Positions 18,005 to 60,721 of a stretch of DNA of 64,000 nt are shown piece by piece. The translations under genes and the position numbers were made by a program. Origin of the DNA: an uncultured Gemmatimonadales bacterium. Its GTDB lineage: Bacteria > Gemmatimonadota > Gemmatimonadetes > Gemmatimonadales > GWC2-71-9. The notes beneath the pieces were generated by a model that made no database searches, was not told the origin of the DNA, and saw only the letters and a program-made list of their open reading frames with translations. The DNA is taken from the NCBI GenBank assembly GCA_963821525.1, contig CAWGED010000005.1, positions 1 to 64,000 on the forward strand. Reading direction: 5' to 3'. How positions within the stretch are numbered: the first letter of the stretch is position 1; each line of letters begins with the position of its first letter.

Positions 18005-18023
18005 GGCGAGGGTATATATTTCC

Positions 18024-18422: not shown

Positions 18423-18443
18423 CCGCACTGAAGCGAGCCAAAC

Positions 18444-18742
18444 ATGACCGAGAATGAAGAATCCCTGAATGTCGCCATCCTTCGCCTGAACGGACGAGCC
18501 TGGGGTATTGCCGCGGGGATGTTGCTCGGCGGCGGGCTGTTCATTGCAACCAACATTCTGGTCCTGAAGGGCGGACCGACGGTGGGGAAGCACCTCCGAC
18601 TACTGTCGGTGTTCTTTCCCGGCTACAGCGTGACCTTCGTGGGCAGCGTCATCGGCTTCATCTATGCCTTTGTGCTGGGCTACGCGGTCGGACGCCTCAT
18701 CGGCGGGTGTATACAACAAGCTGGTGGGGCCGCGCGACCTGA
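18444..18742 (+). CDS. Small membrane protein (3' end uncertain, frameshift)
   Basis: RLNGRAWGIAAG, LLSVFFPGYSVTFVGSVIG, continues GVYNKL in another frame. Confidence 0.65.
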
Positions 18743-18752
18743 AGCGGGTCGC

Positions 18753-21723: not shown

Positions 21724-21803
21724 GTGGTATTTTCCTTGCTGCTGGCCGCCTGGATCGCTGAATCGCCTGAGGCGGCACTAACACAATTCATGCCCGGGTC
21801 CGA

Positions 21804-22709: not shown

Positions 22710-22716
22710 GTCCGCC

Positions 22717-24103
22717 GTGGCCCGCAACTTCCTCGCGCTGGGCGGCGGGGAAGTGGCGGCCCGGGTCATCTCCTTCGGTGCGACGGTCTATCTGGCTCGC
22801 ACCGTGGGCGCGTCCGGGTATGGCCATATCGCCGTCGCGATGGCGGTCATGCTCTACCTCACGTATCTGACCGATTGCGGGGTGGAAGTGCTGGGGGTGA
22901 GGGAGGTCGCGGCTGCGCCGACGCAGATCGGGAAATTGGTTCCTCCGGTCTTATCGCTCCGCCTCGCTGTCGCTGCGACCACCGTCCTGATCATCACAGT
23001 TCTCGGCCTTACCGTACTTCCACAGCCTGATGGTGCGGTGCTGGCAGGCTACAGCCTGATTCTGCTAGCCGTGGGTGGCAACACTCGCTGGGTCCATCTC
23101 GGATTGGAGCGCGCAAGTTTCGCTGCGATGGCTCGAGCCGCCGGCGAAGCCACGATGCTCACACTCGTACTGCTTCTGCTCCGCGACGCAGGCGATCTCG
23201 GCCGGGTCCCACTGGCCCAGTTTACCGGCGACATGCTCGCCGCGATTCTACTGGCTTGGGGGTTGAGCCGATCGGTCACCGCCTCGTCATGCGGTGGGAC
23301 CTCCTGGAGGCCGGTCCCGTCGTACGGCAAGGATCCTGGCTGGTCGCCAACGCAATCGTAGGTCTCCTGATCTACAACTCGGACCTGATCTTCCTTCGGA
23401 TTTTCCGGACACCGCAGGAAGTTGGTCATTATGCCGCGGCTTATACTCTCATCAGCTTCCTCCTTAATCTGGGGATGACATACGGTCAGAGTCTGCTGCC
23501 AACTTTGACCCGCCTCGCCGAAACCTGCCGAGCAACGAGGGCTCTATCATGCCGCCATGGCTCAGGTTTTCGCCGGCGCTATGCCGGTGGCGGTTGGTGG
23601 GACACTCGTGGCCCGCGGCATACTGCACCTGGTCTTCGGCCCACGGTTCATCCCGCGACCGCCGCCCTCATCGTGCTGCTCTGGTCGATTCCTGTTGCCT
23701 TCTTCCGCAACGTCCCTCAGACGGCCCTCATCGCTGCCGGGCGGCAGGAGTGGGTCTTCCATGTCACCTTCGTTTCGGCGGTGCTGAATCTCGCACTCAA
23801 TGTCGCCTTAATCCCCCGCTGGGGCATGATGGGGGCTGCAATGGCCACGCTCGGCACCGAGATCGTCCGCACCGCGATCACCCTGCGTGGTGCGATTCGG
23901 GCGGGTTTCCCTCTGCCCTCCCCGGCCAGATTCTGGCGCGCCTCCAGTCGCTACCGTGGCGATGGTGGAGGCGCTGCTGGTCCTCCGGCCCGGCCCAGTG
24001 GTCGCCTCCATTCTTCTCGGGGCGCTTACCTATGGCGCGGTGCTGATCCTGGTCCGGGGAATCCGGGCTCCGGCGCGGCAAGCCTCCCGAACTCACCCTG
24101 TGA
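22717..24103 (+). CDS. wzx: Wzx-type oligosaccharide flippase, several frameshifts
   Basis: ARNFLAL..ARVISF..YLARTVGASGYG, DCGV, NSDLIFL..VGHYAAAY, LNLALNVALIPRWGMMGAA. Confidence 0.8.
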
Positions 24104-40706: not shown

Positions 40707-40722
40707 TGGCACGGGGATTGCC
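40707..40722 (+). promoter_or_regulatory. Sigma54 (-24/-12) promoter upstream of the small peptide and sulfatase-like array
   Basis: TGGCAC-GGGGA-TTGCC, near-consensus TGGCAC-N5-TTGC in a noncoding gap. Confidence 0.75.
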
Positions 40723-40894
40723 AACCAAACTTGCCTCAACCCGGCGCTTGCAGAGCCGCAGCCGGCGAGGTTGGGTAACTAACGCGGTAGTCCTCAGCGG
40801 CCCGGCCGGCGTCGTTCCGACGCCAGGTCATGAATAGGTCTCCGGACAGGCCTTCTGTCTGGAATTCGCACGAAAGGGTTCGGCTTCCGTGACG

Positions 40895-41052
40895 ATGCAT
40901 CGACTCGGCTTCAGCCTTGTTCTCTACGTCGGTCCCGATCAGATCCTTCCGCTGACCTCCATCCTCGGCGCGTCGGCGGCGCGCTCATGATTTTCTGGCG
41001 CCAGGTTGTGGGTCTCTTCCGGCGAATTCGCTCCGTCTTCGTTCGGGAATAG
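40895..41052 (+). CDS. Small single-TM peptide with YVGP motif (about 52 aa if one missing base is restored)
   Basis: MHRLGFSLVLYVGPDQILPLTSILGA / GGALMIFWRQVVGLFRRIRSVFVRE*; as written, frame 1 stops after 31 aa; not in the ORF track. Confidence 0.65.
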
Positions 41053-41122
41053 CGGTCAGCATTGGCAGTGCGGGCCTCTGCGGCATGCGGAGGGGGTCCG
41101 CAGTGCGCTATAATCCCGTCTA

Positions 41123-42984
41123 ATGTCCCTCCCCAAGCCGGATCTCGCGCGGCCACCCCAGGAACCTCCCGACTGGAGATTCCGCTGGTTCATCATGGCC
41201 GCCGTGTCCCTGGCGCTCGCTTGTGGACTCTGGAAGCCTTGGCTTCCCTCCTACTGGGGACTCGCCAAGGAATCTTGAGCTGGAAGACGGGAAATTCGGT
41301 GAAGGTCCTGATAGCGGCTCCAGCCGTTTATCTCCTGGTCTTCCTTCCTGCCGCCATTCTCTTCGCCCTGCTCGACCGAGCGCTGAAGCAACGCTGGGCG
41401 GACGTCGCCATGATCTTCAGCTTCATCTCGCTGCTCGGCATTTCCGTCACCACTCTGATGCGTCCATGGTTTTCCGCCGGCACTTCTGTGCTGCTGGGGT
41501 TGGGCATGGCATCGGTGGCCCTCCGGATCTACGCCTCCAATCGCACCCGGTGGGGCTTTGCCCTGGTGAGAAGTGCGCCGTGGCTCGTGGCCGCGGCGAT
41601 GCTGATCGGAGTGATTGGCACCGGGTCCACGGGAATCGCCGAGCGGCTCGCGATCGCGCGCCTGCCCGCGGTCCCGGCTTCAGCGCCCAACGTGTTGCTG
41701 ATCGTGATGGATACCCAGCGCGCCGACCACCTCACCGCGTATGGATACTCCCGAGCCACCACTCCTCGGCTGGGGCGTCTCGCCGACGAGGGGGTCAGAT
41801 TCACATGGGCCACTTCGCCTGCCGTTACGACGCTGCCGTCTCATTCCAGCATGATGACGGGACAACTGGTCGGTGAACACGGCGCCGGGGTGAACAGCCG
41901 GCTGTTCCTCGATCGCCGGTTTCCTACCCTCGCCGAACAGATGCGGGTCCGGATACCTGACCGGGGGGTTCGTGGCCAATACGTATTGGACCGGACGTCA
42001 TACCGGGCTTAACCGGGGATTCATTCACTACGAGGACTTCTACGGGGGCCTGATGATGGGTTCACCCGGACCGTGATGGGCCGCGCCATCGCCTATCAGG
42101 TCTTTCCGATGATCGGACAGGTCGATATTCCGGGTCGCAACGCGCGGAAGATGTGAACCGCGAGCTACTCGGCTGGCTCGACCGTCACAGCGGTCGGCCC
42201 TTTTTCGCGTTTCTCAACTATTTCGACGTTCACGCCCCATATCGTCCTCCGCCCGGCTGGGCGGGCCGGTTCTCTTCCCAGGGCGACTCGGTCGCCCGCA
42301 CTCGAAAGATCGAGATCGGCGCGTGGAACGAAGGAACGGTACCGGATTCGGCCGTGCTGGCGGCCTGGCGGACTGTTACGACGAATCGCTGCTCTACCTT
42401 GACCATCAGATCGGTGTCTTACTCGACAGTCTTGCGGCGCGGCACCTGCTGGAGCACACCATCGTGATTGTGACCGGTGATCACGGCGAGAGCTTCGGGA
42501 GCACGGCACGGTGCACCACGGCGCCACGCTGTATCTCGAGCAGATCCGAGTCCCCCTAATTCTCTGGGGACCGGGCCGCATTCCCGCCGGGAGAAAAGTG
42601 GATCGCGCGGTCGATCTGCGCGCGATTCCCGCTACGGTGCTGGAGGTGGCTGGTCTGCCGGCAGCGGGGTTCCCCAGACGGTCGCTTCTCACCTACCTGG
42701 ATCCGGCCGATTCACCGCCGAGCCGGCCCTCTCCGAGGGTCCTCGCGTCCCGGGCAATCCTCCTACCTGGCAGACGGGAAAAGGATGGGTGAAATCGGTC
42801 GCGACTCAGCGCTGGCACCTGATCGAGTTTGAGTCGGGCAATCGTGAGCTGTACGATCTCCAGGCCGATCCGGCAGAGTTGCGAGACCTGGCAGCAGTCC
42901 CCGAGTTGCGGGACACACTGACGGTGCTGGAGCGGGGACTCCCCGGTCCCTTGGGTGCCAGATCGTTCCAGGAGTCCCCGGTGA
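41123..42984 (+). CDS. Membrane-anchored sulfatase-like (alkaline phosphatase superfamily) protein 1, frameshifted
   Basis: N-terminal TMs; PNVLLIVMDTQRADH, TTLPSH, NYFDVH, GDHGE; TATAAT at 41109-41114 just upstream. Confidence 0.85.
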
Positions 42985-44797
42985 CCGAGCCCCCGGTCCG
43001 CTTCACCGGGTTCCGGTTGGTCGGGTTCGCCTTCGCGATCGGCCTGCTCTTCGGGTTCATCGAGGCCGGCCAGGCCGCGCTTTGATTCCTGGTTTTCTGC
43101 GCTCTCGACTGGCGCACGGCGACCGGCTATCCGGTACTGTGGGTCGGTCCCCTGTTTTATGGCGCCGCTTTCGCAGTGTGTGGGGCGCTCGCCGCCCTGG
43201 GCGCACTGGTGCTGCCCCGCGTGCCATGGGACATTCTCCTCCGGCCGGGACTCGCGCTGCTCGGCGGTTGGCTCGCCGTTGAGCTTCACCCCGTCCTGTT
43301 CAGTCAAATCACTTCGGCATTGATAGGTATCGGCCTCGCAGTGGTTCTTACCCGAGCCTATCGGGCGCGGAGAGAGCGCTGGTTCCTCGGGCGCTCAGTA
43401 TCCTGCCGCTCCTGATCGTTCTCGTGACCTGGCCGCGGCCGGCGCGTGGCTCGCGACGATACTGCACGAGCGCTCCCGTCTCGCGGCGCTCCCTGCCATT
43501 TCCGGCGAACGCCCGAACCTGATCCTGTTGGTGATTGACACCCAGCGCGCGGACCATCTCTCGTTTCATGGCTATTCGCGCCCGACCTCGCCCAATCTGG
43601 ATCGTTTTGCCGGACAGGGCTGGACGTTCGACAACGCGACTGCCAGCGCGCCTTGGACTCTGCCCAGTCACGCCACCATGATGACCGGTCACCCGCTGGC
43701 CGACCACCGGGCCGGCGTGGCGAAGCGCCCGTTCCTCGATGACCGGTTCCCCACGATCGCCGAAGCGCTCGGTCATGCCGGCTACGCTACCGGCGGCTTT
43801 GTCGCCAACGTCTTCCGGTGCGGCCGCCGTACCGGCATCGATCGGGGGTTCATACACTACGAGGATTATTTCGGACATCCCGGCGACGCGATCGCCCGCA
43901 CGGTGTTGGGCCGGTGGCTCGCCTACCACGCGCTTCCGGCCCTGGGCCGGCGCGACATTCCCGGCCGCAAGAGTGCCGCCGACGTAAATCGCGAGATGCT
44001 CCAGTGGATCGACGGGCTCAAGGGCCGCCCGTTTTTCGTTTCGCTAACTACCTGGATGTTCACAAACCGTTTCGCCCACCGGCTCCCTACCTCGGCCGGT
44101 TCTCGGGAACTACTCACTTGTCGCGGGCTCCCAGAGAGCCGATGATCGATATCGGAGCCCAGGGCGCCGAGCTCCGGCGGGAGTCTCCGGAGGAGATTCA
44201 GCGGGACATCGACGGCTATGACGAGTCGATTCTCTACCTCGATGCCCAGCTCGGGGAACTGTTCACCGCTCTGGAGCAGCGTGGGTTACTGCAGCGCTCC
44301 CTTGTGATCGTCACCAGCGACCACGGCGAAGCCTTTGGAGACCACGGACTCTTCTCCCATGGCAACAGTCTGTATCGCGATCAGATCCACATCCCTCTGA
44401 TCATGCACTGGCCCGGTCATCTCGACGTCGCGCGCTGGCATCAGCGGTGGGGCTCGATCAGATCGCGCCGACACTGGCGGAAGCGGCCGGACTCACGCAG
44501 GTGACATTCCCCTCACGCTCGCTGTTCGCGCCAGCGGATTCAGCTGCAACTGCGATGTCGCAGGTCGCCGGACGGACTGGGCTGCCGGCGGAGCTCCCGG
44601 TCTCCCGTGGCTGGCTCGCGGCGTTGGTCAACGATCGGTTCCACTACATCCGCTCGCAGGCGGGCACCGCGGAGCTGTTCGACATCACCCGTGATCCCGG
44701 GGAAGAGCACAACCTCGCCTCTGATTCGAGCTTCGCCGGAACCATGAAGGCCCTCGGAGATCGGCTCCACCGCCTCATGCCCAGGCCCATTCAATGA
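42981..44797 (+). CDS. Sulfatase-like protein 2, frameshifted
   Basis: TMs; VIDTQRADH, WTLPSH, NYLDVH, SDHGE, HGNSLY. Confidence 0.85.
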
Positions 44798-46612
44798 GTA
44801 TTTCGTCCGGACGGAGCGGCCCGGTCGTACGGTTGGCACTGTGGTTCGGCCTTGCTACCGGTTTCGGGGAAGTGATACTCCTCGGCCTGCGCCGCTATCT
44901 GCTGCATCGCTTCCTTTTTCTCGGGCAAGACGCGGCGTGGATGGTGCCGCTGGCGGATGCGCTGTGTTTTTCGCGGTCGGCCTGCTGCTCGCCTTGGCGC
45001 ATCGGTGGTGGCCGGGACGATTCACGGCGCCGGCGGTTGCCGGTGTGCTGGCAGGACTCTCGATCTTCGCCCTGCTCCTCATGTACGGTCCGTTGCACCA
45101 AGTGGCGTCGATCCTTATCGCGGTTGGCGTAGGCTACCAGGCCTCGCGGTTTCTCGCTCCCCGTTTCGATCGTTTTCTGGCGGTGGTTGGGCGAACGCTT
45201 CCGGTGCTCGTCGTCCTGCTGCTGGTGACGGCGGGGACGGTTCGCGGGCTCACGCTGTGGAACGAACGCCGAGCGGCCCGCCTGCGGCCTGCGCCCGTGG
45301 CGGGTGCTCCCAACATCCTGCTCATCGTCCTGGACACGGTGCGCTCCCTCAGCCTGAGTGTGTATGGCTACGAACGGGTGACCACCCCCGAGCTGGAACG
45401 CTGGGCGCCCAATGCGGTGCGCTTTGCCCGGGCTCTTTCCACCGCGCCGTGGACCCTGCCTTCCCACTCCACGATGTTCACCGGCCATTTCCCCCACGAG
45501 ATGACCGCCGACTGGCGCACGCCGCTCGACGGGCGCTATCCCACTCTGGCCGAGGTGCTCGAATCCCACGGATATCGGAGCGCGGGATTCGTCGCCAATA
45601 CGATGTACTGCAGCTACGAGACCGGGATACGGCGCGGCTTCGCGCATTACGAAGACTATCCCGTGAACCTGGGCCGCATCCTGTTCAGCTCCACGCTGGG
45701 CAAGCTGGTCAGCGTGAGCCCCTTCTTCCGCGATCGCGCGATCCGCAAGCGAGCGGCCGAAGTCAATCGTGAATTCCTCTCGTGGCTGGACAGAATCGTG
45801 AACCGGGGCCGTTCTTCGCCTTTCTCAACTACTACGATGCGCACGGTCCCTACCAGCCGCCCGCGCCCTTCGACCAGAAGTTCGGCGACGCCTCGCGGCG
45901 CAAGGAGCTGGAGCAGATGCGGGAAGATGCTCCCGCCCTCCAATGGCCGCCGGACGTGATTCAAGCCGCGAAGGACGCCTATGACGGCTCGATCGCCTAC
46001 ATGGACGCCGAGCTGGGAAACTTGTTCCACGAGCTGGATCGGCGCGGGCTCACCCAGAATACTCTGATCATCGTGACTTCCGACCACGGAGAGGAGTTCG
46101 GGGAGAACGGGGTCTTCTGGCACGGCAACAGCCTGTACCGCCCCTCCGTGCAGATCCCCCTGCTGATGAAATTGCCTGGTGGACTCCCCGCCGTCCGCGT
46201 AGTGGATGATCCGGTTTCACTCCGCGATCTGGCGGCCACGATCATGTCCGTCGCCCTGCCCGGCGTGGCCCACCCCTTTCCAGGTGCGAGCCTGAGCCGC
46301 TACTGGCTGTCGGAGAGACGGGATTCGGCGGCAACTGCCGACACCCTGCTCCAGGAGGTGAACTTCGATCCCAGGCTGCCGAGCAATACCCCGGTTTCCA
46401 AGGGCCCGATGCGCGCCGTCGTCTTGGATGGCGGGCGGCTAATCAGGCGGGGAGATGGCTACGAGGAGTTGTTCGATTTCAACCGCGATTCCTCGGAAAC
46501 CAGTAATCTTGCGACCTCCCCCGAGGCTGGCGCTCGGCTCGAACAGCTTCGTGGGGCGCTCAAGGCACTGGTGCCAGTGCGGGCCCAGGCCAACAGCACG
46601 CTTCGCCCATGA
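44794..46612 (+). CDS. Sulfatase-like protein 3, frameshifted
   Basis: TMs; PNILLIVLDTVR, WTLPSH, NYYDAH, SDHGE, HGNSLY. Confidence 0.88.
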
Positions 46613-46691
46613 GCCGGGCCACTGCTGGGGAGACACCAGTCGCCGCAGCGACCAACGATTCACACTGACCTGACGCTCGGGTCGGACACCC

Positions 46692-48490
46692 ATGATCTCA
46701 CCAGCCGCACCACGACCGATCACAGCCCCTGCGGCCGCTCGAGACTCTGACGCTTGCTGCCTGGTTCGGACTGCTCGCCGGAATAGGTGAGGCCGTGGTG
46801 CTCACTTTCCGCAAGTTCGTTCTGCATGCCTCGGTGCTGCGTAACCTGGACATGCTGTGGACCGGTCCGCTCGCCTCGATGGTGCTGCTTTCCTGCCTCG
46901 GGATTCTTTTCCTGTTGTTGTCCCGGGTGTTACCGAGGCTGATCACATGGCGTTTCATCGTGGGCGTCTTTGCGGTGTTCGCCTTCCTTCCGATGCTCTT
47001 GGCCGCGGAGCAGCTGTACCGTGTCGCCGCTGGCCTCCTGGCGATCGGTCTGGGCGTTCAGACTCTACGCATCGTTGCTCCTCGTCGAGAGCGATTCGAA
47101 CGGCTGGTTCACAGGTCGCTCTGGGCCTTGGGACTCGCTGTCGCGCTGGTCGCCGGTGGCCTGCGAGCCTCGTGGGCGCTCCGGGAACGGCGCGGGCTGG
47201 CAGCTCTGCCGGCCGCGTCGAGGGGATCGCCGAACGTGCTGCTGTTGGTGCTCGATACAGTCGCGGCTTTGCGCCTCAGCCTGTATGGCTATCCTCGACC
47301 GAACACGCCTCACCTTGAAGAGTGGGCCCGGCGCGGAGTCCGATTCGATCGCGCCATGTCCACAGCCCCATGGACGCTGCCGTCTCACGCTTCGATCCTG
47401 ACTGGTCGCTGGCCCCATGAACTCAGCGCTGACTGGCTCGCTCCGCTCGATGGGACCTACCCGACCCTGGCCGAGGTGCTCGGAGCTCATGGGTATGCCA
47501 GCGCCGGCTTCGTGGCGAACTCCTATTGCAGCCGCGTCTTCGGGCTGCAGCGGGGCTTCCAGCACTATGAAGATTTCCCCGCGACCCCGGCACAGATTCT
47601 CTTCAGTTCGGCATTGGGCCGGCTGCTGGTGCCGAGCTACGGGTCCGGTTTCACAAGGTGGTTCGGCCCGCAGATGCGATCAACGGCGAGCTTCTGCACT
47701 GGCTCGACGATCGTCCCAAGAATCGGCCCTTCTTCGCCTTCCTGAATTACATGGATGCGCACGATCCCTATGAGCCTCCACCCCCATATGAGGAGCAGTT
47801 CAGCGACCCTGCCTCAATCCGGCTGGTCCATGGCCTTCGCCATGATCGAGTGATCGGCTGGTCTCCCGCCGAGGCTGAGGCCGCCAAGGGCGCCTACGAT
47901 GGTGCGTTGGCCTACCTCGACTCCAGGCTGGGAGCACTGTTCAGCGAGTTGGAACGGCGGGACTCCTGGCAAATACGATCGTCATTGTGACGGCAGATCA
48001 CGGTGAGGAATTCGGTGAACATGGGGTCTTCTACCACGGCAACAGCCTGTATCAGACGGTGGCTCGGGTTCCGTTGATCATCACCTGGATTGGCCACCTG
48101 CCCGCCGGGCGGATCTGACCCCGGTCTCCCTGCGAGACCTGGCGGCGACGGTGATGGATCTGACGGGAGTCGATTAGTCCAGCCTTTCCCCGGCCGTTCC
48201 CTGGAACGTTTCTGGGATCAGCGAGCAGATAAGGCTCCCGTCTCCGACACTCTGCTCATGAAAGTGAGCTATGTACCGAAACTCCCTCGCGGTACACCAG
48301 TGAGTCGGGGGACCATGCACGCGGTACAACTCGGCGGGTACCGGTTGATCGTCAACGGCGATGGGGTGGAGGAACTCTACGATTCGAGACAGCCTCGAGC
48401 GGAACGACCTTCAAGGAACCAGCGCTGGCCGATACCCTCGCGGCCCTCCGCGCGTCGCTCCCAAGTGCGACAAAGTCCGGGTTGGAATGA
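46692..48490 (+). CDS. Sulfatase-like protein 4, frameshifted, ends approximate
   Basis: TMs; PNVLLLVLDTVA, WTLPSH, NYMDAH, ADHGE, HGNSLY. Confidence 0.85.
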
Positions 48491-48497
48491 ACCGACC

Positions 48498-50322
48498 ATG
48501 ACAGCCTCCTCGCCTGTCTCAACCGTCGGCCGAGATCCGGATTGCGGGACTGCATCTCGCTCTGTTTGGCCTCTGGTTGGGTCTGGTCTACGGCTTGATC
48601 GAGGCGCTCGAGGCCATGCTGTGGACTCTGATCCCGGGCGGGCTCTCCTGGCAGAACGGGACCGCTCCACCGATCCTCTGGGTGGCTCCGCTGGTCTATG
48701 GGGGGGCCTTCGGCTTGTGGCACTCCTTGTCGCGGGCCTCTCGAAACTTCTGCCGCGAGTCCGCTGGGACCTCGTCCTGGTCTTCCTGCTGGTTGCCGTC
48801 GGGGCCTAACTGGCGACTCGCTGCAAGGCCTGATCCTTGATGAGCGGGCTTGCCTATTGTTGGGGCTGGGTTCGGTGTTGCTCTGACCCGGGTCTACCGG
48901 CGGCGTCCCGAATGGTGGCTTTCCACCGCACGGGGAACCTTGCGAAGGCTCCTCGGTGCGGTGGCACTCACCGCGGTTCTAATCACCGTCGGCACACGGT
49001 TAGCCGAGGCCGTCGCCTCGCCAGCCTGCGGCAGCCCCAACGGGTCGCCCCAATATCCTCCTTCTCGTCATCGACACCCAGCCGGCCGATCACCTCTCCG
49101 TCTATGGATATGGCCGGCCGACCTCACCGACGCTGGAGCGTCTGGCCCAGGAGGGATGGCTCTTCGAAAACATGACCTCCAGTTCCTCGTGGACATTGCC
49201 GAGTCATGCCACGATGATGACCGGTCGGCAACAGCACGAGCACCGAGCCGGAGTCCTGCGGCGGCCCTATTTGGATCACAAATTTCCAACGATCGCCGAA
49301 CTTCTGCGGCAGGAGGGATACGCGACCGGCGGGTTCGTCGCGAACATTACTGGTGCGGAAGGGAAACCGGCTTGGGTCGGGCTTCATCCGATACGAGGAC
49401 TATTTCCAGAACATGGGCGACGCGCTGGTCCGCACCGTGCTGGGGCGGCGCCTGGCGTACGACGTGTGGCCCAAGCTGGGTCCCCGGAATATCCCCGGAC
49501 GGAAGTCTGCTGCCGACATGAATGCCCATCTGCTGAGCTGGATTGACGGGCTTCACGACCGCCCCTTCTTCGGCTTCGTGAACTACTTCGATATTCACGG
49601 GCCCCTCTTTCCACAGCCGCCGTATCTGGGGCGGTTCTCCGACGTCTCTCGCCGTCCGGCAGGTGAGCCGGGCGTGGCGCTAGGCGCCATCACTGGTGAG
49701 TTCAAACGGCTCACCCCGGAGCAGATCCAGGCCGATATCGATGCCTATGATGAATCGATCCTCTACCTCGATGCCCAGATCGGATCATTGCTGGATGAGC
49801 TGAAGAAGCGGGGCAAGCTGGACAACACCTTGATCATCCTCACCAGCGATCATGGGGAGAGCTTCGGAGAGCACGGCTTCTACTTCCACGGCCACAGTCT
49901 CTATCGGGAACAGGTGGATATCCCGCTGCTGCTCCGCTGGCCTGCCCGGCTACCGCCGGTACACACCGCACCGAGCCAGTGACCTGGAACAGATCGCGGC
50001 GACTATCGCTGAGGCTGCGGGGCTGCCGAGCGGTGCTGTGCCGGGCGTGTCGCTCTTGGGCAAACCAGATTCGGCCGCCGTCGGAATCGCCGAACTGGCG
50101 CAGCGTTCAACCGTGCCGGCTTCCTGGCCCGCATCCCGGGGCTGGCTCGCGTCGCTCACGACCGATTCATGGCATTTCATCATCCTACAGTCTGGTGAGG
50201 CCGAGCTTTACGACTTCCGTCGAGATCCACAGGAGCGGACCAATCTCGCCGCCGACTCGGTTCACCTGGTCGAGCAGTTTCGCGAGCGGTTCAAGCGTCT
50301 GGTACCGATTCCGATTCGATGA
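48498..50322 (+). CDS. Sulfatase-like protein 5, frameshifted
   Basis: TMs; PNILLLVIDTQPADH, WTLPSH, NYFDIH, SDHGE, HGHSLY. Confidence 0.85.
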
Positions 50323-52130
50323 AGGCCTCGCCTGCACCGGCACAGCGACTGACACCCCGCGCCATCCTCTTACTGGGACTCTCGGCTGGTCTGCTCACGG
50401 GTCTAGTTGAAGCGCTGGTGTTCCTATCGCGACGGTTGGTGCTCGGCCGCCTGGTTCACGTTAGCGCCCATTTCGGATGGATGGCCCCGATCGGGGACCT
50501 GGTACTCTTCGCCGGACCTGCGCTCGTACTGTCCCTGTGCGCTCGACTCTGGCCGAGGCTGATGCCGGCGCGACTGGCGTTCTTCCTGTTTGCTTTTCTA
50601 GGGTTCGCCGCCTTGTTGCTGATGGAACCGGGGTTTCACAAGGTGGCGGTCCTGGCCCTGGCAGCAGGCCTGGCGTGGCAGACCGCCCGAATGCTCTCAC
50701 GCAGAACTGGAGCGTTCGAGCAGCGGTCAGGGATTGTCATGGCTACGCTTGCAGCGTGCGTGACGCTGATCGGTGTAATGACGGTCGGAATACAGGCGGT
50801 GCGGGAGCGAATGGCAATCGGACGTTTACCTGCAGCGGCGGGGAATCGCCCGAACGTGCTCCTGATAATCCTCGACACGGTCAGGGCAAAGAGCCTCAGT
50901 CTTTACGGCTACAATCGAGACACCAGCCCATCGCTGACCCGTCTGGCGGGACGCGGAGTACGGTTCGAGCGGGCCTTCTCGACCGCGCCGTGGACGTTGC
51001 CCTCGCACGCCAGCCTGTTGACCGGTGACTATCCCCACCAACTGTCGGCGGACTGGATCGAGCCACTGGATCGCAAGGTTCCCACCCTGGCTGAGCGGTT
51101 CAGTGCCGAGGGTTATCTGACCGGTGGATTGGTTGCCAACGTGGGCTACTTGAGCTGGGAATTCGGACTGAACCGGGGGTTCGCTCACTATGAGGACTAC
51201 CTCTTTCGTCCGCGGGACATTCTCGAGTCAACCTCGATCGGGAGACAGCTGGACTACAGTTACCTCCTCCGTGACTTGCTACATACCGACCAGCATCTGG
51301 TTCGGATCGACGCGCCGTCCATCAGCCGGCGCTTCCTGAGTTGGGTAGACAAGCGCGGAGACCGCCCCTTCTTTGCTTTCCTCAACTATTACGACGCGCA
51401 CGGTCCTTATCTCCCGCCCTCGCCATGGGACCGTCGCTTCGGTGCGGCCCGTCAGGATAACCGCAGCACACTTCATCGTTTTCTGAGCCGGCCGTTCGGT
51501 CCGCTTCCCCAGGCGGTGGTCGACCGGGAGATGGAGCAATACGATGGTGCCCTCGCCTATCTCGACGACCAGATCGGTAAGCTCATCGAGGAGCTGGATC
51601 GTCGCCATCTGCTCGATCACACCATCGTGCTCCTGACCGCGGATCATGGCGAAGAGTTCGGTGAGCATGGCCTGTTCGATCATGGAAATTCGCTCTACCG
51701 GCCCTCGGTTCAGGTCCCCCTTCTGGTCGTGTACCGTGGGGTGGCTCCGGCGGGCAGGCAGGTGGAGCAGCCAGTGACCCTGCGGGATGTCGCCGCCACC
51801 CTGGCCGACTTGGCTGGACTGCCAGCTGGGGAGGTTCCGGGGGTCTCTTTGGCCCGATTCTGGCGAGAGAGTCCCCCGGTTGAGCCCCGTACGCAAAGCC
51901 CTGTCATTTCAGAGGTTAGCAAAGGGATCCGAACCCCGCCCTGGTATCCGGTCAGCAAGGGGGACATGCGTTCATTGGTAGAAGGGGGCCATCGCTACAT
52001 CTTGGGTGGGGATGGCACGGAGAAGCTGTTCAGTCTGAGCGACGTTTGGGAACGAAATCCCCTGTCTCTGTCGGATTCGTTGGTGCTACCCTTTCGGAAA
52101 GAACTTGCCCGCTGGCCATGGCACAGATAG
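50319..52130 (+). CDS. Sulfatase-like protein 6 (intact, 603 aa)
   Basis: About five N-terminal TMs; PNVLLIILDTVR, WTLPSH, NYYDAH, ADHGE, HGNSLY. Confidence 0.92.
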   Translation: MKASPAPAQRLTPRAILLLGLSAGLLTGLVEALVFLSRRLVLGRLVHVSAHFGWMAPIGDLVLFAGPALVLSLCARLWPRLMPARLAFFLFAFLGFAALLLMEPGFHKVAVLALAAGLAWQTARMLSRRTGAFEQRSGIVMATLAACVTLIGVMTVGIQAVRERMAIGRLPAAAGNRPNVLLIILDTVRAKSLSLYGYNRDTSPSLTRLAGRGVRFERAFSTAPWTLPSHASLLTGDYPHQLSADWIEPLDRKVPTLAERFSAEGYLTGGLVANVGYLSWEFGLNRGFAHYEDYLFRPRDILESTSIGRQLDYSYLLRDLLHTDQHLVRIDAPSISRRFLSWVDKRGDRPFFAFLNYYDAHGPYLPPSPWDRRFGAARQDNRSTLHRFLSRPFGPLPQAVVDREMEQYDGALAYLDDQIGKLIEELDRRHLLDHTIVLLTADHGEEFGEHGLFDHGNSLYRPSVQVPLLVVYRGVAPAGRQVEQPVTLRDVAATLADLAGLPAGEVPGVSLARFWRESPPVEPRTQSPVISEVSKGIRTPPWYPVSKGDMRSLVEGGHRYILGGDGTEKLFSLSDVWERNPLSLSDSLVLPFRKELARWPWHR

Positions 52131-54000
52131 TTGCGGGAGTCCCGTTGCAGTCCCGAAAAGTGTGCGACGAGGGGGGGGCGGATCGGTCCGCGCTTCAGCC
52201 GTCGCTTCTGATCTTGGCTGTGTGGTTCGCGCTCGCCGCCGGGCTGCTGGAAGGGGCCTGGAGGGTGTTTCAGCGCCTGGGATTGCACCAGTTCGTTGGC
52301 CTGCCGTTCGATATCGTCTGGATGGCTCCGACAGTCGATTTTCTCTGGTTGTTGCTACCGACCCTCCTGCTGATACTGGCCCGTCGGCTGACTCCGGGGA
52401 AACTGCCATTCGGCGCCCTGGTCGGAATCCTGGGTGGCCTGGCCGCTTTGCCCCTCTTCCTGCTGGTCACGTCCATGCATAAGGCGGTCGCGCTGGTGCT
52501 CGCCGTGGGCGTGGGCATTCAACTGAGTCGTCTGGTGTCGGGACGGGCGCTGGCGGTTGCTGCCTTCATGCGGCGGACCCTGCCGCTGCTGGGCATTCTG
52601 TTCGCCAGCGGGGCCAGCCTGGTGTTGAGCATCGAATGGTTGAATGAACGTGCCGCATCGACCCGCTGGCCCGCCGCATCTCGAGACAAACCCAATGTTC
52701 TTCTGCTGGTCTGGGACACGGTACGAAACGATGAGTCAGCGTCGCGGGATACACCCGGCCTACCACACCGTTTCTCGAGTCAGTGGCCCGGGAGGGAGTT
52801 CGCTTCGAGCATGCGTTCAGCACCGCGCCCTGGACCCTCCCCTCCCATGGGAGCATGTTCACCGGTCAGTGGCCCTTCATGTTTTTCCGGGGGATCTGGG
52901 CGCCCGTGGAGATGCCGACACCGACCCTGGCGGAGGCGCTCTCTCAGGCGGGCTATCGGACCGGCGGGTTTACCGCCAACCTGGCCTACACCACCCGGGA
53001 GCACGGGATTCACAAGGGCTTTGCGCATTACGAGGATTTCAGCCGCACGATGGGGACAGCGCTCGCCAAGTCGCGCATCAGCCGGGTGATCCTGGATCCG
53101 CAATGGGTACGCCACATCATCGGATACTACGATTTGATGGGGCGGAAGCGGGCGGACGTGATCAACACCAGTTTCCTGCGCTGGCTGGACCAGGATGGCT
53201 CCAGGCCATTCTTCGGATTTCTCAATTATTTCGACGCCCACGCGCCCTATATCGCTCCCTCACCGTTCCGGGAACGGTTTGCTCTCGCCCGGCGGGGAAA
53301 GTATGAGATCATTCCGCAGCCGGGACAGGGAGGCGGTCCCTCGCGTACCCCTGAGGCCCACCGATACTGGCGCGCCGAATACGACGCCCTCATCGCATCC
53401 CTGGATGACGCGACCCGGAGGCTGTTCGCCGAGCTGGCCCACCGAGGTCTGCTCGACAATACCATCGTCATCATCACCTCGGACCACGGCGAGCAGTTCG
53501 GCGAACATGGCAAGTGTTGCCACATGAACACCCTCTATCGGGCGGTCCTGGAGGTCCCACTCTTGATCCGGTTTCCACCTGCCGTGCCGGCCAATCAGTC
53601 CATTCCAGCCCCGGTGAGTCTTCGGGACATACCGCGCACCGTGCTCACCCTGACCGGTGTGGCCGCGGAAAGTATCCCTGGGCGCTCCCTCACTCGCTTC
53701 TGGAAACCGGAACCCGCTGCGCCCGATTCGTTGATTCTGGCCGAGTTGTCCACCTCGCGCCGTGGTAACCTCGGCCCTCACGCGGTGGTGTCCAACGGTG
53801 TCTTCTACATTCGGGCAGGAAAGGATTCGGTTGAGCTCTACGACCTGCTGGACGACACGGCCCAGGCCACCAGCCTGCATCGTCATCCGGCTCGCAGCGC
53901 CGATCTGGCTCGCTTCAGACATGTGACGGACAGCCTCGCCGAGCTTTACCGGCGGAGGAGCCACACAACCGACGAAGTCGAAGAGGAGGACGAGCAGTGA
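52118..54000 (+). CDS. Sulfatase-like protein 7, frameshift near 52730
   Basis: TMs; PNVLLLVWDTVR, WTLPSH, NYFDAH, SDHGE, CCHMNTLY. Confidence 0.88.
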
Positions 54001-55827
54001 GCACGGACCCTTCGACTGCACTGGAGGTGCCGAGCCACAGGCTGATCGGGTGGGGCGCCGCGCTTGGCATCGGCGCCGGTCTGATCGAGGCCGCGATGGC
54101 GACCATTCGGTCGGGTCGCACCGCGCTCTTGATTGGGAGGGTGCGGCGACTTTGTCTGGTTGGCCCCGCTGGTTGGTCTGCTGCTCGGCTTGAGCAGCGT
54201 GATTCTCCTGATCGGAGCGCGCCGGCTGTGCTCCCCGCGCGTTTACCCCTCGGGTGATCCTCACCATCGTCGGCACCGTCGTTTTCCTAAGCCCGATTTT
54301 TCTTTTCCAGCGGATGCATCGACTCGCCGCGCTGGTGCTGGCGCTGGGAATCGGGTTCCAGCTGGCGGCCTGGCTCACTCGGCGAGCCGCCGCATCGCGC
54401 TGATGCACTGGATGCTTCCACTTGGTAATGTTCTGCTGGATCGCTGGCGGACTGGGATTGGAGGTGGTACGGAACCTGCGCGAGCGCGCCGCCATCCGAA
54501 GGCTCCCACCCGCCGAAGCCGATCGTCCGAACGTCTTGCTCCTGGTGCTGGATACGGTTCGCGGAATGAGCCTGAACCTGTACGGGTACCCGCGAGCTAC
54601 CACTCCTGAGTTGAAGAAGCTGGCTGAGCGAGGCGCCCGGTTCGACTACGCGGTGGCGCCGGCGCCATGGACCCTCCCTTCTCACGGGTCGATCTTCTCT
54701 GGACGTTTACCCCGGGAATTCAGCACCACCTTCCGTACCCCGTTCGACGAGAAATTCCCCGTGCTCGCCGAGGCGCTCGCCGGTCACGGCTACGTGACCG
54801 GTGGGATTCGTCGCCAACATCTGGTATTGCGCGGCTGGCCACGGTCTGGAGCGGGGATTCCTCGCAGTATCGCGACTACCCCCGCACCACGTGGCGAGTG
54901 GTCGAAGGGTCGGCACTCGGTCGTTGGCTCTTCGAGCAGGCCACCGTCCGCAGGTTTGTCGGCTGGTACGAGATGCTTTGGCGCAAGAACGCCGGACGGG
55001 CGGTGAACGAATTTCTCGCAGTGGGAAGCGAAGCCGCGCGATGGACGTCCCTTCTTTGCGTTTATCAATTTCTTCGACGCCCACAACCCATTCGTCCCAC
55101 CGGCGCCTTTCGATACCATGTTCGCGACCGTCCAGGACGACACTATGATCCGCGCTTCAAGATGCCGGAATTTTCCGACCTCACGGCCGATGAGATTGAG
55201 TTCACCCGGGACCAGTACGAAGGAGCTATCGGATACATCGACCGGTCCGTCGGGCATATGTTGACCGAGCTGGATCGGCGCGGCGTCTTGAAGCACACGA
55301 TCGTTGTGATCACCTCCGACCACGGCGAGCAGTTCGGCGAGCACGAGCTCCTGGGGCATGGCAACAGCCTGTATTCGCAAGTGCTCCACGTTCCGCTCGT
55401 GATCGTGTATCCCCCCAAGGTGCCTGCCGGCTCGGTCGTGGCGCCCCCCGTAGGGCTTCGCGACATCCCGACCACGGTCCTTGACCTTGCTGGTCTGCCG
55501 AACGATCGCGGCCTTCAGGGGCGCTCCCTTACCCGCTTCTGGGAACGTCCAATGGACTCCGGGGACGTGGATGAGGTCATCGTTTCCGAAATGCCGGGCG
55601 CGAGCGCTGCCAATGCCGTCTCTCTCATTGCGGACGGGCATCACTACGTCCGCTGGTGGAAGCGGGCGGAAGGCGTCTACGACCTTCGAACCGATCCGAC
55701 CGAACAAACCAATCTGGTCGGCACTCCCATAGGAGATTCGCTGCTGACCCGGTTCCGGGACATGGCGGCTGAACTGTCCCAGAAGTTTCCCGGGCTCAGG
55801 AAGGGGGAGGCGAATGACACGCTCTGA
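53997..55827 (+). CDS. Sulfatase-like protein 8, frameshifted
   Basis: TMs; PNVLLLVLDTVR, WTLPSH, NFFDAH, SDHGE, HGNSLY. Confidence 0.85.
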
Positions 55828-56024
55828 GGCCCGAGCGGCCGGAGTCATTCGACGGTCTGGTGTCATTACATTTGCGACCGATGATGACTCGCTCGAGCTC
55901 TATGGCGCCAAGGCTCGTCCACCCCCATTTCGTTGGGTAGTGCTGAAATCGACGATGACCACCGCTGACGACTGCTGCGCGGTGACTGCGAACCACGGCA
56001 GCGAAGCTAAGAAAGGTGAGGCGA

Positions 56025-57886
56025 GTGACACATTCTGACGTGATGGCCCCAGGCCACGGCGCCGCTCCTCGGGCGGCCCAGGCACAACCTGTGGCCGAAG
56101 AGCGGATGAACATCGTGATCGGCGGCCATGTCGACCACGGGAAGAGCACGATCGTGGGCCGGCTGCTTGCCGACACTCATTCGCTGCCCGAGGGGAAGCT
56201 CGAGGCGATCAAGGCGCTCTGCGAGCGCACCGCCAAGCCGTTCGAATACGCCTTCCTGCTCGACGCGCTTAAGGACGAGCAGTCGCAGGGCATCACGATC
56301 GACGCAGCGCGGGTCTTCTTCAAGACGGCCAAGCGCCACTACATCATCATCGATGCGCCAGGGCACATCGAGTTCCTGAAGAACATGGTCACCGGCGCCT
56401 CCCGCGCCGAGGCTGCCCTCCTGGTCATCGATGCCAAGGAAGGAGTCCAGGAGAATTCCCGCCGCCACGGCTACATGATGTCCATGCTCGGCATCAAACA
56501 GATCGCCGTGCGTGGTCAACAAGATGGATCTGGTCGATTACAGCCAGCGCCACTACGAGGGGATCGTCCGGGAGTACACCGATTTCCTGAACCGGATCGG
56601 GGTTCATCCCGCGTGCTTTATTCCCGCCGCGGGACGGGAAGGCGACAACATCGCGAGCCCGTCGCCCAAGCATGAAGTGGCACACGGGTCCGACGGTGCT
56701 CCAGGCGCTGGATCAATTCAAAAGCGAAGGTCCCGCGGTAGGCCAGCCGTTCCGGATGCCGGTACAGGACGTCTACAAGTTCACCAAGCAGGGAGACGAC
56801 CGCCGCATTATCGCCGGAACCGTGGAAACCGGAACGCTGCGGGTCGGAGATGAAGTCGTCTTCTATCCTTCCGGCAAGCGCAGCCGGGTAAAGTCGATCG
56901 AGTCCTTCAACACGCCGGTCCGGCAGCAGGCGGAGGCGGGCCAGGCTGCGGGCTTCACGCTGTCGGAACAGATCTACGTCGCGCGGGGTGAGCTGGCCAC
57001 GGTCGCGACCGAGCCCAAACCCAAGGTCACTACCCGTCTCCGGGTGAGCCTCTTCTGGCTCGGCAAACAGCCCTTCATCAAGAAGAAGGATTACCTGCTC
57101 AAGCTGGGCTCGGCCCGCGTGCCGGCCCGTCTCGAAGAGATCACCCGGGTAATCGACGCCTCCAACCTGAATACCAGCGACACCAAGGACCGGGTGGACC
57201 GCCACGCTGTGGCGGAGTGCGTCCTCAAGCTCAATCGAGCGCTCGCTTTCGATCTCGCCGAGGAAATCGACGCGACCAGCCGCTTCGTCCTGGTGGACGA
57301 CTACGAGATCCGCGGCGGAGGCATCGTCCGCGAGGCGCTGCCCGACCGGCAGACCGAAATTCGCGAAAAGGTGATGCTCCGGAACTACAAGTGGGAGCCG
57401 AGCATCATTCAGCCGGAGCGCCGGGCAGAGAAGTACAGCCAGAAAGCCTCTCTGCTCCTCATCACCGGTGCCAAGGAGAGCGACCGCAAGTCGCTCGGCA
57501 AGGAGGTCGAGGCCCGGCTGTTCGAGGACGGACGCGTGGTCTACTTCCTCGGGATCGGGAATGTGCTCTACGGCATTGATGCCGACATCGAGCGCAAGTC
57601 CGAGAACCGGCAGGAGCACCTCCGCCGGCTGGGTGAGGTCGCCAACCTCATGCTCGATTCCGGGGCGATTCTCATCGTGACCGCAGCCGACCTGTCGCAG
57701 GAAGACCTGGAGGTCATCAAGACATCGGTTGATCCTGACCGGATCGAAACCGTCTGGGTGGGAGACAGCGTGACGACCGACATCACCTGCGACCTGATCC
57801 TGGCCGAACAGGAGGCCGAGGAAGAGGGGGTCGAGCGGATCAAGCGTCTGTTGCAGGACAAGGGCGTCCTGTTCCGGCCCTGGTGA
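56025..57886 (+). CDS. cysN: Sulfate adenylyltransferase GTPase subunit with a degenerate C-terminal APS-kinase-like domain, 2 frameshifts
   Basis: [51 protein letters not shown]-terminal [28 protein letters not shown]. Confidence 0.9.
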
Positions 57887-59250
57887 GCATGGTGAACGAG
57901 TCCGCCTCCGCGGTTTCTCCCGACGCCCTCACCCGGCTCACCGCGCTTGCGGTGAGAGCGGGCCAGGCGGCCATGGTGCACTACCACGACGGGGTCGCGG
58001 TCCGCCAGAAGGGCGACAAGGGCCCGGTTACCGCTGCCGATCATGCATCGCACGCCGTGATCGTTGAGGAGTTAGCGGCCTGGGACTCCTCGATCCCCAT
58101 CATTTCGGAGGAAGGGGACATTCCCGGGTACGAAGCCCGCCGGGCTTGGCGCCGATTCTGGTTGGTGGATCCGCTCGACGGCACCAAGGAATTCATCCAG
58201 AGGAACGGCGAGTTCACGGTGAACATCGCCCTGATCGAAAACGGAGTTCCTGTCCTCGGTGTGATCTATGCGCCGGCGTTGAGCCTGCTCTATTACGCCG
58301 GTCAGGGACTCGGCGCGTGGAAGCGCGAGGCTGGTGGTCAGCCGGAGCGTATCCTTTCTCGCCCACCGCTGCCGGGCCATGCCCTTCGGGTGGCGGAGAG
58401 CCGGTCCCATCCTTCAGAGGAACTGGAGCAGTATCTCAAGACGATCAAGGTCGCGGACCGGGTGCCGGCCGGGAGCTCGCTCAAGTTCTGCTGGGTCGCT
58501 GAAGGAAAGGCGGATATCTATCCCCGCCTGGGCCCGACGATGGAGTGGGACGTAGCGGCCGGGGACTGCATTTTCCGTAACTCCGGTACGCATGGGCCCC
58601 GGCGCTCGTCGCTCGTCTACAACCAGCCCGAGCTCCGCAACCAGGGGTTCATCGTCGGGCTGGACGACAGCGAGCTGGACACCTCCAGCAGTCGTGGCCG
58701 CGTGCTCTGGTTTACCGGCCTCTCCGGTTCGGGCAAGAGCACCATCGCGCGGCTGGTGGTGGAAGAACTGGAACGCCGGGGTAGTCCGGTCGAATATCTC
58801 GATGGAGACACGATCCGCGATATTTTCCCGGCGACCGGCTTCACTCGCGAAGACCGCGACCAGCACATCCGCCGGGTGGGTTACCTGGCCAGCCGCCTCG
58901 AGCGCCACGGAGTGACGGTAATCGCGTCGCTGGTGTCCCCCTACCGCGCTTCACGGGACTTCGTGCGCGGGCTGTGCCGGGACTTCGCCGAGGTCTGGGT
59001 CGCGACGCCGTTCGAGGAATGTGAGCGTCGAGATGTCAAGGGACTCTACGCCAAGGCCAGGCATGGCGAGATCAAGAACTTCACCGGGCTCGACGACCCG
59101 TACGAGCCTCCGGTGACGCCGGAGCTGACCATTCAGACTACGGGGAGAACTCCCGAGGAGTGTGCCGGGGAGGTCATCGGATGGCTGGATCAGATGCCAA
59201 CCGTAGTCGCGGAAGCCGGCAGGGTGCCGCAGCTTCACGAGAACTATTGA
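57883..59250 (+). CDS. cysQ-cysC: In-frame fusion of 3'(2'),5'-bisphosphate nucleotidase CysQ and adenylyl-sulfate kinase CysC
   Basis: [35 protein letters not shown]; then [36 protein letters not shown]; one uninterrupted 455-aa frame. Confidence 0.92.
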
Positions 59251-59260
59251 GGACTTAGTC

Positions 59261-60143
59261 ATGGATCATATTGATCAGCTGGAACACAGGAGCGTGCACA
59301 TCTTCCGTGAAGCCTATGCCAACTTCAAGAGCCTCTGCATGCTCTGGTCGATCGGCAAGGACAGCACGGTCCTGCTCTGGCTCGCGCGCAAGGCCTTCTT
59401 CGGGCATGTGCCGTTCCCCCTCGTTCACATCGATACCTCGTTCAAAATTCCGGAGATGATCCGCTATCGGGATCGCCTCGCGGCCGAGTGGAACCTGAAC
59501 CTCATCTACGGGCAGAACGAAGGCGCGCTGCGGGAGAAGCGCACGTTCCCCGACGGGGCCGTGGATCGCATCACCTGCTGCAGTCTGCTCAAGACTGAAG
59601 CGCTGAAAAGGACCCTTTCCGGGGAATGGCCGCGCTACCGCTTCAATCACGCGAAGAAGGCCTACGAGCTCGACAAGAACACCGAGCCCTTCACCGGCGT
59701 CATCGTCGGCGCCCGGGCCGACGAGGAAGGCAGCCGCTCCAAGGAGCGGTATTTCTCACCCCGGAACCGCGAGAACTCCTGGGATGTGGGCGACCAGCCG
59801 CCCGAGTTCTGGAACCAGTACAAGACCGACTTCGCGCCGGGCACCCACCTGCGGATCCACCCGCTGCTGGACTGGACCGAGCTGAACATCTGGGAATACA
59901 TCGAGCGGGAGAACATCCCGACGGTGTCGCTCTACTACAACCACGGCGACGGGATCAGGTATCGCTCGCTGGGTTGTGGACCCTGCACCAAGCACGTCGA
60001 GTCCGACGCGCAGAAATGTTCAGGAGATCATCGTCGAGCTGAAGACCGGCAAGTTCGCAAACATCGCGGAGCGGTCGGGCCGGGCCCAGGACAAGGACGA
60101 TGGCGGCGGGCTCGAGACTCTTCGGCGCGACGGGTACATGTGA
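59261..60143 (+). CDS. cysD: Sulfate adenylyltransferase subunit 2, frameshift near 60015
   Basis: [47 protein letters not shown]; true tail [15 protein letters not shown]. Confidence 0.92.
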
Positions 60144-60721
60144 CCGTCCTCAAGACCCGTCGTCGGATCACATCGCCGTTGAGGATCCGATAGCTCTCCA
60201 CTGCCACCCCCGGGGTCGCGCCGTCCGCGATCGTGTTCTCGAGCGCTGTGGACCCGCTGCGGCGAGTTCGGCATCCAGAGGCTCCCCATCCCGAGGGCTA
60301 CCTCGGAACCGGACTGAACATCCTCACCACGAACCTCCCTGCATGACGCGATAGGGCACACTCTACCCGGGCATCTCGGAAATTCAGCGGGACCTCCTCG
60401 CCAAGCCTTGGCCTCTTGCGAGTCCGGCGGCGATAGGGGTGACACGAGCCTGTGGCCGCCGAGCCACATGGGATCGTGGTTTTTCCGGAGCCGAGCAGGC
60501 CCCTATGCTTAACTCAATATATCACAATAGCTTACCTGGTAATCGGGCCGGAGCCTACTTGGGTAATCCGGACCTGCTACCCGCGGCACGCGGATCGCAT
60601 ATGTCGGTTCCGATCCAGTTTCAGCTCCCTGCGGCCATCCACGAGGCCACGCTTCCGTTACCGACCTGCGGAGCAGTGGTTCCGCGGCACCGTGCTTTCT
60701 CTCTCCTCACCAGTGAGGGAT

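Follow-up and report, generated by a model that had tools for sequence, protein, structure and literature searches.

A conserved tyrosine-bearing membrane microprotein encoded beside sulfatase-like enzymes and cys genes is a candidate carrier of sulfate

Closest described systems

DltX and PatA are Tyr acyl shuttles that work with MBOAT-SGNH pairs and have a C-terminal FxYxxF motif, and the passages describing DltX state that its loading goes through the MBOAT protein DltB (PMC12148441). Compared with those passages, the microprotein reported here is similar in that a membrane microprotein or fused peptide places an invariant, predicted outer Tyr between a cytoplasmic donor and an outer transferase, and in that both free and fused forms occur. 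Unlike DltX, its Tyr is near the N-terminus within Y-[IVL]-G-P-[DE], before the helix, and its tail is basic and variable, with no C-terminal FxYxxF. Its partners also depart from the MBOAT and SGNH proteins of those passages: they are a PAPS sulfotransferase or phosphodiesterase-fold enzyme together with sulfatase-fold enzymes, no tunnel protein was found, and the predicted cargo is sulfate. The microprotein is not a DltX by motif or by partners, though by analogy it would work like one.

BcsF acts in the production of phosphoethanolamine cellulose in E. coli. According to passages of its description, it recruits BcsE by its C-terminal tail and does not contact BcsG (PMC11470070). Like the microprotein, BcsF spans the membrane once, carries an amphipathic extension and is encoded beside a membrane-anchored transferase of the alkaline-phosphatase superfamily (PMC11470070). 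Unlike what those passages describe for BcsF, the microprotein is conserved at its N-terminal end, where the Tyr motif is predicted to lie outside, and varies in its tail.

Agl30 and Agl31 of Halobacterium are sulfatase-fold proteins that are needed for glycan sulfation, according to passages of the relevant paper (PMC11980604), and the array enzymes of our locus are likewise sulfatase-fold proteins that we propose sulfate glycans. These passages give Agl30 and Agl31 one membrane helix or none, compared with five helices and a T-L-P-S-H motif in the array enzymes; PAPS is absent from the main text of that account, and no microprotein appears in the passages (PMC11980604). The question addressed here is how bacterial glycans come to be sulfated on the outside, given that PAPS synthesis is cytoplasmic. 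Many "sulfatase-like" genes without the formylglycine motif have no assigned reaction.

Tang et al. 2013 reportedly described a two-step sulfation of caprazamycin by Cpz8 and Cpz4, in which a PAPS-dependent enzyme loads a carrier that is then used by a PAPS-independent enzyme; a small molecule reportedly serves as the carrier there, and an aryl-sulfate sulfotransferase acts second. The two-step logic would be the same here, with a membrane peptide as carrier and sulfatase-fold proteins as second enzymes. PbgA/YejM, LtaS and EptA have the same layout as the array enzymes, namely five transmembrane (5-TM) helices with an outer alkaline-phosphatase-fold domain in which Thr occupies the nucleophile position. 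Lipids are the donors for LtaS and EptA. Unlike these three, the array enzymes have a catalytic domain that is closer to sulfatases. What our comparisons add is a PAPS sulfotransferase that is a candidate loader and tracks the microprotein across genomes.

The microprotein gene and its family

The window (the whole stretch of 64,000 nucleotides that was analysed) contains, in order, the microprotein gene, eight array genes, cysN, a cysQ-cysC fusion and cysD (Table 1). Judged by the names of homologues, its genome belongs to Gemmatimonadota. The upstream part includes glycosyltransferases, deacetylases, a Wzx-type flippase and asparagine-synthase-like genes and is, by its gene content, a surface-glycan island.

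Table 1. Positions of the features discussed, numbered from the first nucleotide of the window
Feature	Position	Strand	Remarks
Sigma54-type -24/-12 promoter site	40707..40721	+	TGGCAC-N5-TTGC; same site in G001
Tyr microprotein gene	40889..41052	+	54 aa when intact; one base missing after 40972 here
Invariant Tyr codon	40925-40927	+	residue 13 counted from GTG 40889
Eight 5-TM alkaline-phosphatase-superfamily (sulfatase-like) genes	41123..55827	+	T-L-P-S-H nucleophile motif; outer limits approximate
cysN (ATP sulfurylase GTPase subunit, C-terminal APS-kinase-like domain)	56016..57886	+	two frames; Pfam GTP_EFTU, EFTU_D2, APS_kinase
cysQ-cysC fusion (PAP phosphatase and APS kinase)	57883..59250	+	TIGR01331, TIGR00455 over cut-off
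cysD (ATP sulfurylase small subunit)	59261..60193	+	NF003587 over cut-off

As assembled, the frame from ATG 40895 (40895-40990) encodes 31 aa and then stops, and the hydrophobic helix and basic tail are found in another frame that ends with TAG at 41050-41052. A preliminary description of this DNA held that one inserted base was needed near 40972. An extra A behind this position is present in contigs from all four sequencing runs that cover 40880-41080 (two further runs, X1 and X4, do not reach it); these contigs are 95-99% identical to the window and belong to close relatives rather than, as far as is known, to the source sample. The base is also present, and the frame intact, in six of six aligned relatives. 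Because neighbouring genes in the same assembly have many similar indels with respect to intact orthologues, the missing A is likely an assembly error. The four contig sets and six relatives rule out a true 31-aa stop or pseudogene, the outcome that would have counted against the preliminary description. Single-base indels break most array genes and cysN within 41000-60200 and are probably errors of long-read assembly; the array gene at 50319-52130 is intact.

The ORF is real, as first proposed, and only its start needs correction. The orthologue in genome G001 has no ATG at the position of 40895, and the proteins of P0002, a cluster of 22 members, begin two codons upstream of that position, so the start is probably GTG 40889 and the product 54 aa. 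This GTG is located ten bases after AAAGGG. Six relatives differ over 28 codons by 193 synonymous and 39 non-synonymous changes, a coding signal above chance, and at the level of sequence comparison the ORF is confirmed as protein-coding.

The preliminary description also made this ORF the first after a sigma54-type promoter, and the site at 40707 is confirmed. Of 50 Gemmatimonadota copies, 16 have a site of this pattern in the 260 bases ahead of them, compared with 30 of 2,500 random windows and just 1 of 33 copies outside the phylum. A second sigma54-type site (window 21725-23945) precedes a decaprenyl-phosphate phosphoribosyltransferase-like gene and a Wzx-type flippase gene; in genome G003, genes of these two types immediately precede the microprotein. 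In 16 of 52 Gemmatimonadota loci, the region ahead of the microprotein encodes two small two-helix membrane proteins without a Pfam match, and window 17898-19031 is a candidate counterpart of this pair (compare L059:4184-4910).

The microprotein comprises a short hydrophobic leader, Y-V-G-P-D, a single membrane helix, F-W and a basic amphipathic tail. The predicted structure of the G001 orthologue has helices at residues 3-13, 16-35 and 37-53 (mean pLDDT 78). This orthologue matches no Pfam or NCBIfam family at curated cut-offs, in keeping with its initial description as an unannotated small protein, and 70 members give scattered weak matches to these collections, with at most 6 of the 70 matching any one family. 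Matches in the ESM Atlas (0.85-0.88) are to unnamed clusters and are leads only. No account of the Y-x-G-P motif or of the system was found in the literature covered, main texts mostly from outside subscription journals, and within that scope the family is undescribed.

Homologues and their neighbourhoods had been pointed to as informative, and the search recovered about 1,000 clusters, with the Tyr in every member read. A five-row profile retrieved 218 proteins, and the best 120 all have Y-[VI]-G-P. A 22-row profile retrieved 1,018 clusters at E<=0.001 (255 at 1e-10); among the best 150 representatives, the Tyr is kept in 146 of 146 new ones. All of these 150 are 43-113 aa long, and longer, fused forms may exist. 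Phe does not occupy the Tyr position in any of the 266 homologues read (120 + 146). In one protein (P0135), the Tyr motif is present twice in tandem, and three loci (L065, L121 and L214) each have two microprotein genes.

The Tyr is invariant in three family alignments, as are two Pro, a Ser and a Gly in 70 diverse members; the helix also holds invariant Pro, Ser, Gly and Phe-Trp residues. Ahead of the Tyr, the leader can be as short as one Met or as long as about 50 residues, and the Tyr-to-Trp spacing is 24 in all 261 parsed homologues. Mean net charge is -1.0 on the Tyr side and +4.9 past the helix, and the post-helix side is the more positive in 259 of 261 parsed homologues. This bias across the helix predicts that the Tyr is on the outer face of the membrane, an orientation that the preliminary description had derived from the positive-inside rule. 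An acidic residue is conserved four positions after the Tyr.

A DNA pattern scan of GTDB genomes gave at least 120 matches, in which the Tyr is fixed by the pattern itself. Among the matches listed, 80 are named, 47 of them in Gemmatimonadota and 33 in Acidobacteriota, Chloroflexota, Planctomycetota, KSB1, Calditrichaceae, Nitrospirales, Casimicrobiaceae and three unnamed bacteria.

Partner enzymes and their distribution across genomes

The array enzymes score above the cut-off for PF00884, and their eight T-L-P-S-H motifs are at 41821, 43648, 45444, 47365, 49184, 50985, 52825 and 54662. Alignment with solved sulfatases places the Thr at the formylglycine Cys and the His at the Arg of CxPxR, so the array enzymes, as judged from this alignment, are not formylglycine sulfatases. 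Both residues are invariant in 25 aligned array-type enzymes, as are the metal-site residues D9, D268 and H269 (Asp/Asp/His, as in the sulfatase fold). In their catalytic domains they resemble sulfatases much more closely than phosphotransferases; phosphoethanolamine-transferase models give weak matches, and models of the PbgA/YejM, LtaS and EptA types fall far below their cut-offs.

The N-terminal domain of the array enzyme consists of five helices. Foldseek gave no significant match to this membrane domain, and its closest solved fold is the membrane domain of PbgA/YejM, with a Z score of 7.8 and an rmsd of 4.4 over 148 aligned residues, which is middling for a helical bundle. YidC is absent from the best 50 structural matches. 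This fold match, together with a charge bias that is modest and lies in loops 2 and 4 of the 5-TM enzymes, favours predicted catalytic domains that face outward.

Co-occurrence was analysed in 401 Gemmatimonadota genomes, in which 48 matches to the microprotein profile were obtained and 45 kept. The matches in G084, G256 and G299 were dropped because they correspond to other membrane helices or were not reproduced. Enzymes of the 5-TM array type are present in 57 of the 401 genomes, including 44 of the 45 microprotein carriers, and APS kinase in 42 of 45 carriers compared with 147 of 356 other genomes; the carriers are kin, so p-values overstate the association, and the 5-TM profile was built from genes near microproteins. 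The link to alkaline-phosphatase-superfamily and cys genes, whose absence would have counted against the preliminary description, is very strong. The microprotein was not found in 13 genomes that have only array-like enzymes. Three genomes of the same class have a 5-TM enzyme and no detectable microprotein; one of them, G159, is a single contig that is 95% complete, and its sulfotransferase match is partial.

Genes for sulfatase-fold proteins, phosphodiesterase-fold proteins and sulfotransferases recur around the microprotein, as do cys genes. A cys or sulfotransferase gene, or one of the array or phosphodiesterase type, is within 7 kb in 46 of the 49 loci from Gemmatimonadota and in 29 of the 33 from elsewhere. 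The cys genes are directly adjacent in 17 of the 49 Gemmatimonadota loci, and PAPS genes are within 7 kb in 2 of the 33 loci outside the phylum. MBOAT or SGNH genes occur in a minority of microprotein loci, and neither an MBOAT nor any other conserved multi-pass conduit accompanies the microprotein in the loci examined. No extra YidC was found in the five genomes checked, each of which has one ordinary YidC.

A membrane-anchored sulfotransferase (PF00685, E 3e-43) is the first candidate loader. A profile made from seven sequences, all from loci outside Gemmatimonadota, matches 36 of the 401 genomes, comprising 33 carriers, two non-carriers and one weak match. At E<1e-50 the counts are 33 of 45 carriers versus 2 of 356 others, and both of these others have a 5-TM enzyme. 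Because the sulfotransferase genes of Gemmatimonadota are mostly unlinked to the microprotein, synteny alone does not explain their co-occurrence. In the genome of the window, the gene is at C19:339319-340430, frameshifted into two frames. A correlation between peptide and sulfotransferase distances (rho 0.27; 2 of 2,000 permutations) was set aside as support, being weak and equally well explained by shared descent.

The nearest solved relatives of this enzyme are oestrogen and phenol sulfotransferases, and its PSB loop aligns to that of 1aqu. Residues T114-W122, H178, R197 and S205 are invariant in 27 aligned sulfotransferases; we take H178, R197 and S205 to be the SULT catalytic His and the Arg and Ser that bind the 3'-phosphate of PAPS. 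Lys or Arg precedes the anchor in only 1 of the 27, and a mean of 7.3 such residues follow it, which points to a cytoplasmic sulfotransferase domain.

The second candidate loader is a soluble Thr-type phosphodiesterase-fold enzyme (PF01663) without a signal. It is present in 11 of 12 carriers that lack the sulfotransferase and in 3 of 33 that have it, and no orthologue was found in the 115 non-carriers tested of 356. One carrier, G197, has neither enzyme. The swap between the two recurs in four families. Outside the phylum, the phosphodiesterase-fold enzyme adjoins the microprotein in 16 of 33 loci and the sulfotransferase in 9 of 33, with both in none. From this mutual replacement among carriers and this adjacency outside the phylum, two enzymes of unrelated fold fill what is, by gene content, one slot beside the peptide. 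A second phosphodiesterase-fold paralogue has a tail ending in LGY in 29 of 32 copies read, and this LGY-type paralogue is missing from the three carriers with both loaders. In four Anaerolineae loci (L130, L157, L159 and L177), genes flanking the microprotein encode a 195-aa Sulfotransfer_3 protein, the phosphodiesterase-fold enzyme and a degenerate paralogue of 204 aa, which may represent a third arrangement of loaders.

A possible sulfate relay and competing readings

In our estimate, the chances are even that the conserved microprotein carries sulfate on its Tyr from an inner loader to outer Thr-type transferases, and thereby to surface glycans. PAPS synthesis by CysDN and CysC, and removal of PAP by CysQ, are known chemistry of those families. 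CysDN and CysC would make PAPS here, and CysQ would clear PAP. The SULT1-like sulfotransferase of this genome would then sulfate the microprotein Tyr. In other genomes, the soluble Thr-type phosphodiesterase-fold enzyme would load the Tyr, usually with the second, LGY-tailed paralogue. The short N-terminal segment would move the Tyr-O-sulfate to the outer face, which is the weakest step, and each of the eight array enzymes would take the sulfate onto its own Thr and pass it to its own sugar acceptor. This relay would be the simplest account because it uses every part: PAPS, loader, peptide Tyr, enzyme Thr and glycan. All of its support is comparative, comprising gene content, conservation and predicted topology.

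The carrier idea in the preliminary description is partly supported, by the many homologues, the invariant Tyr and the link to alkaline-phosphatase-superfamily and cys genes, and the candidate loader adds a component absent from that description. Neither an MBOAT-like tunnel protein in the loci examined nor an extra YidC in the five genomes checked was found, a difficulty for the relay, in which the Tyr is predicted outside and the loader inside. The acidic residue four positions after the Tyr is another, since it would hinder the return trip.

If the relay is correct, the Tyr-shuttle principle would extend from acyl groups to sulfate in unrelated proteins. A minimal three-part kit of sulfotransferase, 54-residue peptide and one 5-TM enzyme, drawn from common soil and sediment phyla, would offer a route to enzymatic glycan sulfation.

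It is possible, though we are doubtful, that the microprotein is instead a non-covalent scaffold or gate, comparable to BcsF, that joins the inner sulfotransferase to the outer enzymes, with sulfate crossing on something else, for example as a small phenolic or a lipid sulfate, and the Tyr serving as a docking residue. The same co-occurrence would then be explained without a peptide that flips, and the invariant Pro, Ser, Gly and Phe-Trp residues of the helix would suit helix packing. SULT1-like enzymes normally act on small phenols. BcsF itself, in the passages describing it, crosses the membrane once, has an amphipathic extension, brings in a cytosolic partner and shares an operon with a 5-TM transferase (PMC11470070). 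However, no gene for a separate carrier accompanies the system; the frequent UbiA-family neighbour is present in 11 of 52 loci. This neighbour was rejected as a maker of a phenolic carrier, for it scores as a decaprenyl-phosphate phosphoribosyltransferase. The complete lack of Phe at the Tyr position in the homologues read would be unusual for a packing residue, and the peptide is retained when its inner partner switches to an unrelated fold.

A covalent Tyr carrier could also dispense with the return trip, either because the peptide is sulfated once before insertion and then consumed or because an outward-facing loader uses exported PAPS, and we judge this improbable. The dedicated sigma54-type promoter would suit a high output of consumable peptide in the 16 of 50 Gemmatimonadota copies that have it, and a sodium/sulfate-symporter-like gene near the microprotein in some loci is compatible with single use or outward loading. 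However, the anchor charges of the sulfotransferase and the signal-less phosphodiesterase-fold enzyme place the loaders inside, and single use would cost fused relatives a 700-residue protein for each sulfate.

That the array enzymes are hydrolases, or transferases of lipid-derived phospho groups like LtaS, EptA and BcsG, with the microprotein an accessory and the sulfate genes co-inherited in a glycan island, seems improbable: the Thr nucleophile, five membrane helices and weak phosphoethanolamine-transferase matches would fit, as would the few non-Gemmatimonadota loci with PAPS genes within 7 kb and a look-alike Y-I-D-P-G family that sits with CDP-glycerol-transferase-like domains and choline kinase genes, but the distribution of the unlinked PAPS sulfotransferase follows that of the microprotein, about a third of the Gemmatimonadota loci have cys genes immediately beside it, and the catalytic domains are far nearer to sulfatases than to phosphotransferases.

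Returning to the sulfate relay, a broader version can be proposed tentatively. A reusable peptide without a tunnel enzyme would carry sulfate across on its N-terminal Tyr and would be one branch of a widespread class of anchors capped by a Tyr in Y-x-G-P or Y-x-D-P-G, some of them free, some signal-cleaved and some fused to the loader. Such anchors would bring activated sulfate or phospho head groups to the outside, and their loaders would differ in fold and be able to replace one another. Many "sulfatase-like" Thr proteins would then become a new class of outer sulfotransferases.

Several arrangements resemble such anchors. In five genomes, a distant phosphodiesterase-fold paralogue consists of a signal peptide, Y-V-G-P-G-A-G, a membrane helix, a basic linker and a catalytic domain, and it adjoins a paralogue with a lipoprotein-type signal. 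Scored with the microprotein profile, the fused peptide does no better than shuffled controls. At L256:7538-11900 (G028), and also in L257-L260, the fused form and lipoprotein paralogue are followed by a short ORF ending in LGY, and neighbouring sulfatase-like proteins in these loci likewise end in LGY. None of 104 array-type enzymes in microprotein loci has an LGY tail, compared with 14 of 15 more distant relatives that come from classes in which no microprotein was detected, a contrast that is between subfamilies and is confounded by descent. Five enzymes from three same-class genomes have neither the microprotein nor the LGY tail.

In metagenomes, at least 120 sequences with a Y-I-D-P-G motif share the layout of the microprotein; among those listed, 31 are free and 85 fused. 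The fused forms have a PF04464 (CDP-glycerol-transferase-like) domain (for example L308 and L338, among L287-L406), and their loci adjoin YidC fusions with a weakly sulfatase-like domain and genes for choline kinase or nucleotidyltransferase. Comparison with the microprotein by hhalign gave a probability of 21.5% (P 0.001). Scores above 5 bits were obtained for 12 of 110 Y-I-D-P-G sequences, 11 of 1,100 shuffled sequences and 1 of 164 unrelated helices, in a set preselected on Y-I-x-P, and homology to the microprotein is weakly supported. The free Y-I-D-P-G forms adjoin a sulfatase-like gene and an unnamed gene of 460-560 aa.
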